Positions 35,395 to 35,630 of a stretch of 64,000 nucleotides of DNA are shown here, one piece after another. The notes beneath the pieces were generated by a model, which was not told the origin of the DNA, made no database searches, and was given only the letters and a program-made list of their open reading frames with translations. The DNA comes from Schmidtea nova (taxonomy: Eukaryota): assembly GCA_044892505.1 (NCBI GenBank), contig CM097882.1, positions 507,904,001 to 507,968,000 of the forward strand, given 5' to 3'. Position numbers and translations under genes: made by a program. Each line of letters begins with the position of its first letter. Position 1 is the stretch's first letter.

Positions 35395-35630
35395 TCATGG
35401 AGGGTTTAGATGAAAAATCGTTCTAACAATGACTAGGGATCCCTCATCCATGATCATACATAAAATTGCAATTATACACTCAAGCGCCCTTGATTACTTC
35501 CCTAGATAATCAAGTTGGTGATGCGCAGGGTGGTTAAACAATGATGGGCAGGTGAGCACTATCGCTAGTACTACTCCCCATTTATGTTTACGAGTTCATT
35601 GCTGCCGTTAGAAGGACTTACGCTCTAATC
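35395..35630 (-). ncRNA. Conserved structured RNA element of unknown class (copy A)
   Basis: Several hairpins show compensatory changes versus the copy at 52073-52297, and two loops are complementary (CTAGGGA at 35433-35439 and TCCCTAG at 35499-35505). Confidence 0.6.

Follow-up and report, generated by a model that had tools for sequence, protein, structure and literature searches.

To our knowledge, leader structures that control the primer of reverse transcription are well described only for a few retroviruses and the yeast Ty elements. In HIV, the primer tRNA makes additional pairs through its T-arm and anticodon loop (PMC3185550, PMC11251516), and the T-arm pairing to the primer activation signal (PAS) is disputed (PMC3185550). 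The U5-PBS region of HIV-1 and RSV holds an 8-nt T-arm complement upstream of the PBS, a U5 stem beside the PBS, and a loop that possibly reads the anticodon (PMC3185550, PMC11251516). The Ty1 primer makes extra pairs through its T and D arms (PMC4974528), as does the Ty3 primer, which is bound by a bipartite PBS (PMC5371799), and Ty1 additionally has two complementary hairpins with 7-nt loops for which a dimer kiss has been proposed (PMC5454406). In planarians, Burro and GYPSM1 are giant Ty3/gypsy elements with the domain make-up that we report below (PMC6431247). The accessible part of that paper and our literature searches contain no leader RNA structure or primer interaction for Burro, and the accessible parts of PMC8532177 and PMC7969010 hold nothing on LTR-end structure; the genome paper or repeat libraries may describe these LTR ends.

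The window analyzed here, a stretch of 64,000 nt from Schmidtea nova contig CM097882.1, contains two copies, A and B, of a conserved block at the ends of Burro-type LTRs. The block is a new RNA family absent from Rfam that would work like the U5/PBS domain of retroviruses and Ty elements. The reading that we favor from comparison of its sequences, and hold to be reasonably probable, is that it serves as a primer-docking and reverse-transcription-initiation module, probably with a part in packaging too. As in the retroviral domain, the LTR 3' end directly precedes an 18-nt PBS and carries a conserved T-arm complement of 7-8 nt. Unlike in HIV-1 and RSV, the T-arm motif precedes the PBS by ~200 nt, with the predicted cap 1-3 kb away, a D-arm match that competes with an internal kiss is added, and there is no sequence likeness. 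The candidate extra pairing to both T and D arms recalls Ty1 and Ty3, and two hairpins with complementary loops recall the 7-nt loops of Ty1, whereas here the PBS is a full 18 nt, the extra sites lie upstream in the LTR in non-coding sequence, and the kissing motif itself matches the D-arm.

The blocks are the 3' termini of two LTRs

Each block forms the very 3' terminus, on the presumed U5 side and read from the minus strand, of an LTR. The two are not the paired LTRs of a single element and belong to different subfamilies: LTR A is the 3' LTR of a partial element, and LTR B, because CTAC flanks both of its ends, is a solo LTR of another subfamily. Homology among 30 A copies ends at 35386/7 and that of B stops at 52067, with the CA end on the minus strand. 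The features of the two LTRs are as follows.

35387-38611, minus strand: LTR A, 3.2 kb, TG...CA, 3' LTR of a partial Burro-type element, delimited by the homology end of 30 copies and by a start after the purine tract
38612-38630, minus strand: polypurine-tract region before LTR A
38228-38235, minus strand: TATA box of LTR A, with a CCAAT-like box upstream; putative promoter, at the same position in other copies
35858-36466, minus strand: LTR-encoded ORF of A, 202 aa, no Pfam family, no database homolog
36635-37210, minus strand: second LTR-encoded ORF in A, 191 aa, no Pfam family
38800-45672, minus strand: 3' accessory ORFs of A's element
40625-42004, minus strand: TRAF zinc finger/MATH ORF among the 3' accessory ORFs
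52067-54948, minus strand: LTR B, 2.9 kb, solo LTR, flanked by CTAC on both sides
52602-53240, minus strand: LTR-encoded ORF of B

Blocks A and B are 78% identical over 198 nt, which is the sole DNA match between the two LTRs at E<1e-4; the proteins of their LTR ORFs (35858-36466 and 52602-53240) are 47% identical, and the N-terminal 110 residues are conserved. Database protein searches gave no homolog of the LTR ORF and no planarian relatives of either this ORF or the TRAF ORF, the latter matching cellular proteins only, at 24-37%.

A full-length relative of A measures 29.7 kb and has 3261-nt LTRs that are 99.4% identical, with GAGT on both sides. Its size of ~30 kb, long TG...CA LTRs and 4-nt target duplication are those of a Burro-type element, as is the order of Gag, fusion protein and PR-RT-RH-IN together with ankyrin and MATH/TRAF. 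Its open frames encode RING, Gag CCHC, fusion glycoprotein, protease, RT, RNase H, integrase, ankyrin, and TRAF/MATH domains, and the polyprotein is interrupted by stops and frameshifts; the 11 frames scanned contain no BIR or BCL2 domain. Burro and GYPSM1 likewise are ~30 kb long and combine Gag CCHC, a fusion glycoprotein between Gag and protease, PR-RT-RH-IN, ankyrin, TRAF/MATH and RING (PMC6431247); the likeness is one of description, not of direct sequence comparison, and TRAF/MATH here lies 3' of pol. Two LTR pairs (L369/L370 and L371/L372) are 100% and 99.97% identical, and insertion of these families is therefore recent.

Thousands of copies in six groups

Searches with blocks A and B returned 1722 and 2055 candidate places, 40 of which were scored for each search. 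A core pattern matched the genome 2358 times versus 39 times for its reversed control, so the block is not a product of chance; a further pattern matched 1393 times. The PBS pattern matched 2913 times (control, 0), and the block stands directly upstream of the PBS in all 30 of the first PBS loci; a short spacer and a tRNA-type PBS follow the block in 4 of 30 A loci. Pattern matches and 60 fetched stretches fall into six diverged groups, A to F, which amount to about three deep lineages. We parsed 176 copies, having removed 16 loci as duplicates, chimeras, truncated, or misfiled and merged identical cores (4 remained unparsed), and 155 copies passed a stricter filter.

Group C is the commonest, with 19 of the first 30 PBS loci. 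Eighteen group-C copies chosen by PBS alone are 99.6% identical at 201-101 nt before the PBS. With gaps included, their identity is 93.5% over the final 100 nt and falls to 43-58% at distances above 300 nt from the PBS. A near-identical terminal block with only ~50% identity further upstream (group C, loci L099-L128) suggests exchange or rapid turnover of the LTR middle. In group E, LTR length is 1559 nt in one element and 3234 in another, the short one retaining the promoter end and the block. Loci L308 and L318 (about 1200-1520) have PBS-bearing ends that share another 100-nt upstream sequence, with no block directly before the PBS, and L318 has a second PBS ~190 nt upstream.

A pattern scan of viral sequences gave 0 matches. 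A metagenome scan gave 58 stretches, taken as chance because their best model score was 20.8 bits versus ~195 for true copies. The module was not found outside this genome in the viral and metagenome scans. With its 240 nt it marks every LTR end of this type of element. Among the contigs listed for four sequencing runs of unrecorded kind there were no intron-like joints, a result uninformative on expression or RNA ends.

A structured RNA read from the minus strand

Read on the minus strand, the block consists of P1 with a 7-nt loop (UUCUAWC), a GRACCC single strand, the P3-P4-P5 arm, the P6-P7 arm, an AU-rich linker, and P8.

35387-35623, minus strand: terminal structured RNA module, copy A; no PBS follows
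35601-35623, minus strand: P1 hairpin, whose 7-nt loop (35607-35613) fits the tRNA T-loop pattern and may fold as one
35591-35598, minus strand: single strand complementary to the primer tRNA T-arm, PAS-like; pairing predicted
35535-35590, minus strand: P3-P4-P5 arm, with U/CAC internal loop and GNRA tetraloop (35562-35565)
35484-35526, minus strand: P6-P7 arm, with CCAA internal loop (35515-35518) and P7 loop (35497-35506), which is kissing loop 1 and has tRNA D-loop letters
35387-35464, minus strand: P8 terminal stem-loop, whose motif (35433-35440) is complementary to the P7 loop and to the tRNA D-arm
52067-52292, minus strand: terminal structured RNA module, copy B
52270-52292, 52260-52267 and 52231-52234, minus strand: P1, PAS-like strand and GNRA of copy B
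52184-52187, 52166-52175 and 52100-52108, minus strand: CCAA, P7 loop and P8 motif of copy B

The words on which the preliminary description built its structure are all present (hairpins at 35489-35514 and 52158-52183, ACTA-tcgc-TAGT at 35558, TCTA-tttc-TAGA at 52227, GGCAG/CTGCC, and CTAGGGA at 35433 and 52101), and its view that they belong to a functional minus-strand RNA with compensatory changes is borne out. RNAalifold, applied as that description had proposed, to an unedited MAFFT alignment of 59 hand-picked copies, predicted 20 pairs, 17 of them with double changes, with a covariation term of -6.5 kcal/mol. Helices P4-P7 are kept by double changes across the six groups. In the manual structure 84% of cells pair, compared with 34-42% when partners are slid (the columns of the kiss are misaligned in groups A and B). 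With window copy A as the reference, seven other copies show 60 double changes, of which 58 preserve the pair, a figure that is inflated because registers were picked by best fit. Folded individually, copy A gives a weak signal (z -1.2) and copy B a clearer one (z -3.3).

The minus-strand reading was also right: in 155 copies it turns 310 cells into G-U and 23 into A-C, about half of the G-U cells coming from one invariant column, and it places a GNRA tetraloop in 137 of 151 copies outside group C. These strand-specific pairs and loops, together with the paired fraction and the double changes, weigh against conservation at the DNA level, in which an integrase end and protein sites would be kept and the structure would be accidental. 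The block does contain the integrase end, and individual column pairs barely exceed a null built on the tree (best E=0.05, effective number 21), yet five of the seven top column pairs are model pairs, and we regard this explanation as scarcely credible.

The GGCAG/CTGCC helix, which had been called invariant, falls outside the covarying fold: it shows no double change, is mismatched in group C, and competes with P1 and P4. A pseudoknot of GGCAG/CUGCC with CAAUGA/UCAUUG was rejected for the lack of double changes and the group C mismatch, four variant copies being single mutants. A splice donor at the block start was likewise rejected, GUAAGU occurring only in A, B, and F.

The fold does not end with the LTR. 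In all eight 5' LTRs that we folded, the base of P8 pairs the LTR end with the pre-PBS spacer outside the LTR, and because this last stem needs bases from outside, the module is complete only in the 5' leader. A 3'-UTR role, the main one suggested earlier, fits poorly with a block that forms the LTR terminus adjoining the PBS. AATAAA words occur upstream of the block in most groups and are frequent in this AT-rich DNA. The same stem bears on the possibility of a translation or RNA-stability element, whether an IRES or an export or stability module through which internal ORFs would be used despite several kb of leader before them, or a protective 3' end of LTR transcripts. The layout would suit such a role, with a TATA box ~380-400 nt into LTRs of 1.6-3.2 kb, ORFs before the block, and a RING ORF beginning ~300 nt past the PBS. 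Against it stand the completion of P8 outside the LTR, the match of the conserved single strands to the primer tRNA, and the lack of any Rfam match to an IRES or stability element, so that we think it improbable. Packaging, also among the functions proposed at the outset, is a likely second role.

Self-cleavage of the long leader by an unclassified ribozyme, another of the initial proposals, we consider very unlikely. The block has a sharp 5' conservation edge, many invariant unpaired bases and a loop-loop contact, and shares with self-cleaving ribozymes and SECIS a compact multi-helix fold. But no Rfam 15 model for these matches and no catalytic core words are conserved: eight loci from the six groups gave four weak Rfam matches, none on the block (E up to 5-10), and window positions 33000-55000 gave one chance miRNA match only. 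No hammerhead, twister, pistol or hairpin core word is conserved on either strand; CUGANGA is found in 5 of 155 sense copies, and a loose SECIS pattern occurs on both strands. The kiss is dispensable in group C, and cleavage anywhere from R to the PBS would put strand transfer at risk, except where R itself includes the block.

Complementarity to the primer tRNA

The primer is host tRNA-Pro(UGG), to whose 3' 18 nt the PBS is complementary. The CGG isoacceptor has a different base facing PBS position 18, where 2913 sites are of UGG type and at most 65 have another base (~98% UGG). Among tRNA-Pro gene matches, 210 of 1106 are non-UGG, about a fifth CGG-type, the first 100 listed all being CGG; hardly any AGG gene was matched, and one AGG match came without its 5' part. 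The tRNA-Pro genes stand in long tandem arrays (L217, L297-L304), with a 308-nt unit for UGG and a 713-nt unit for CGG plus tRNA-Arg. Of 20 loci with another 18th base, 17 were parsed; all retain CCAA, and they are scattered over the known groups.

Two single-stranded motifs of the module match parts of this tRNA beyond the PBS, a complementarity that the preliminary description does not mention. GRACCC(G) is complementary, over 7-8 bp and in all six groups, to the T-arm strand freed by the PBS. Its core is nearly constant in 155 copies (G in 153, A in 72 and G in 83, A in 155, then C in 148, 150, and 150); only the position opposite U varies as a purine, U is the main variant at the C positions, and nearly all of this variation keeps wobble pairing. 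No conserved partner for GRACCC within the molecule exists in five aligned LTR pairs; a candidate near the purine tract was rejected, being present in one A copy and absent in E (5 of 7 LTR pairs aligned). In copy A, 10 letters of the purine-tract region itself (38612-38630, minus strand) recur in the primer tRNA, in its variable loop and T-stem, and group E differs there.

The second motif, in the P8 loop, has eight positions that pair with the tRNA D-arm in 97-100% of 74 copies from groups A, B, D, and F, whereas the P7 loop pairs with two of these eight in only 56% and 63%. The kissing motif fits the D-arm better than its hairpin partner in four groups; in E only 5-6 bp of the D-arm match remain, and in C only 4 bp. 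Duplex energies for kiss and D-arm are similar in the window copies (-11.4 and -12.2; -13.4 and -12.3), favor the D-arm in typical B and in one F copy, and favor the kiss in E. No two-sided covariation is visible in these matches because the tRNA partner is invariant.

When the free 57 nt of the tRNA were shuffled (600 dinucleotide shuffles), the two motifs gave p=0.013 and 0.015 in what is a post hoc test, and the summed score of the best two of five single-stranded regions was reached in 0 of 600. The GRACCC word is common to other host tRNAs, with Ala and Ser scoring 6.0-6.2, as Pro does; the P8 motif is not matched by others. The thousands of copies in six groups thus offer a ready-made comparison: the helices covary, and the single strands retain their complementarity to the primer.

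The internal loop of P6-P7, CCAA opposite one G in 149 of 155 copies, invites comparison with T-box riboswitches, which place a codon-like triplet and a purine in an internal loop (here CCA-A, the codon read by UGG) and have a T-loop-like hairpin (PMC7583486). It is an analogy only: the double T-loop (AGAGA + UGxRA), S-turn, and antiterminator are absent, the P1 bulge varies between groups, there is no Rfam match, and CCAA against the anticodon is not above chance (p=0.35 versus shuffles). The P1 loop equals the host T-loop at six of seven places and may adopt a T-loop fold. These likenesses could add up to a protein-independent tRNA-capture switch, in which a D-loop mimic in P7 is the latch, P1 mimics the T-loop, and CCA-A reads the UGG anticodon. 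Such a switch would explain why ~98% of sites are of UGG type despite CGG genes being about a fifth of gene copies, and its P1 mimic would replace the melted T-loop of the primer; on present evidence from sequence comparison we think it rather unlikely.

The kissing loop

The complementarity claimed for the P7 and P8 loops was confirmed (7 bp in A, 8 bp in B), and the window copies are the best cases. Group E retains a kiss of 7 bp, its outer pair changing from G-C to A-U and inner pairs being swapped in L136 and L144, and the loops covary in one group, E2, where cognate loops form 6.4 Watson-Crick pairs and permuted ones 5.8 (p=0.00035), among 15 related copies and with only about three independent double changes. 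In A, B, and D a core of 5-6 bp is kept, the outer part being broken in most B copies, where the typical mismatch leaves a 5-bp kiss, and in group C a 3-nt loop takes its place and the kiss is absent in 23 copies. The kiss is genuine and not universal, and complementary loops in all active lineages, as in a Ty1-type kiss, are not found. The preliminary description would have been refuted by a lack of covariation or by loss of loop complementarity in intact family members; covariation is present, and its own test goes partly against it because the complementarity is lost in group C.

The kiss raises the alternative that the block is a packaging and dimerization signal only, with the kiss joining two genomes, Gag reading the GNRA and internal loops, and the tRNA matches incidental. 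The covariation in E2, the leader position, and the precedent of 7-nt loops in Ty1 (PMC5454406) all speak for it. Set against these are the commonest group, C, which lacks the kiss, and the fixed P8 bases facing varying P7 partners, which it leaves unexplained, as it does the T-arm match. As the sole function this, the strongest of the alternatives, seems to us unlikely, and it is compatible with docking as a second one.

A proposed model for primer docking

The sequences establish where the module lies, helices P4-P7, the terminal stem that spans the LTR boundary, which tRNA is the primer, and the complementarities. If docking is the function of the module, annealing of the tRNA 3' 18 nt to the PBS would free one strand of the T-arm and loosen the D-arm. 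The freed strand would then pair with GRACCC(G) over 7-8 bp, in the manner suggested for the PAS of HIV, and in groups A, B, D, and F the P8-loop motif would take up the loosened D-arm over 8-9 bp. Before the tRNA arrives, the P8 motif would be held by the P7 loop, which carries D-loop letters and would be displaced by the primer, so that the kiss would serve as a latch. Docking would set up initiation just 3' of P8, which RT would then unwind. Group E may lean on the kiss (7 bp) over the D-arm (5-6 bp), and group C has lost the kiss. An additional caution is that the invariant P1 loop offers an alternative partner for the UAG of the P8 motif.

P3-P7 is more elaborate than primer docking alone requires. 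By analogy, the module probably serves Gag recognition and dimer formation too, since LTR ORFs and 1-3 kb separate it from the predicted cap. In this way an LTR whose leader runs to several kb and contains ORFs would hold the signals for its replication together in a single portable unit. A kissing loop that also mimics the D-loop would, if real, represent a novel means of timing when reverse transcription begins.

Neighboring features of the window

Fragments at 35304-35372 and about 51200-51310 (plus strand) resemble the C-terminal end of a Bel/Pao pol and are apparently split by the elements inserted between them. At 24621-28986 (minus strand), two long frames of 941 and 319 aa include a weak endonuclease VII match and may resemble a Polinton-type DNA polymerase B. 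A 209-aa frame at 31642-32271 (minus strand) has weak Piwi and Argonaute linker matches (E 0.004 and 0.009) and is either a host exon or a captured fragment. A 350-aa ORF at 46435-47487 (plus strand) is like ISG20-type exonucleases (E 1e-5), with no Pfam match. Finally, a small Ty3/gypsy element occupies 57229-62973 (minus strand), with LTRs of ~380 nt that are 93% identical and open gag and pol frames.
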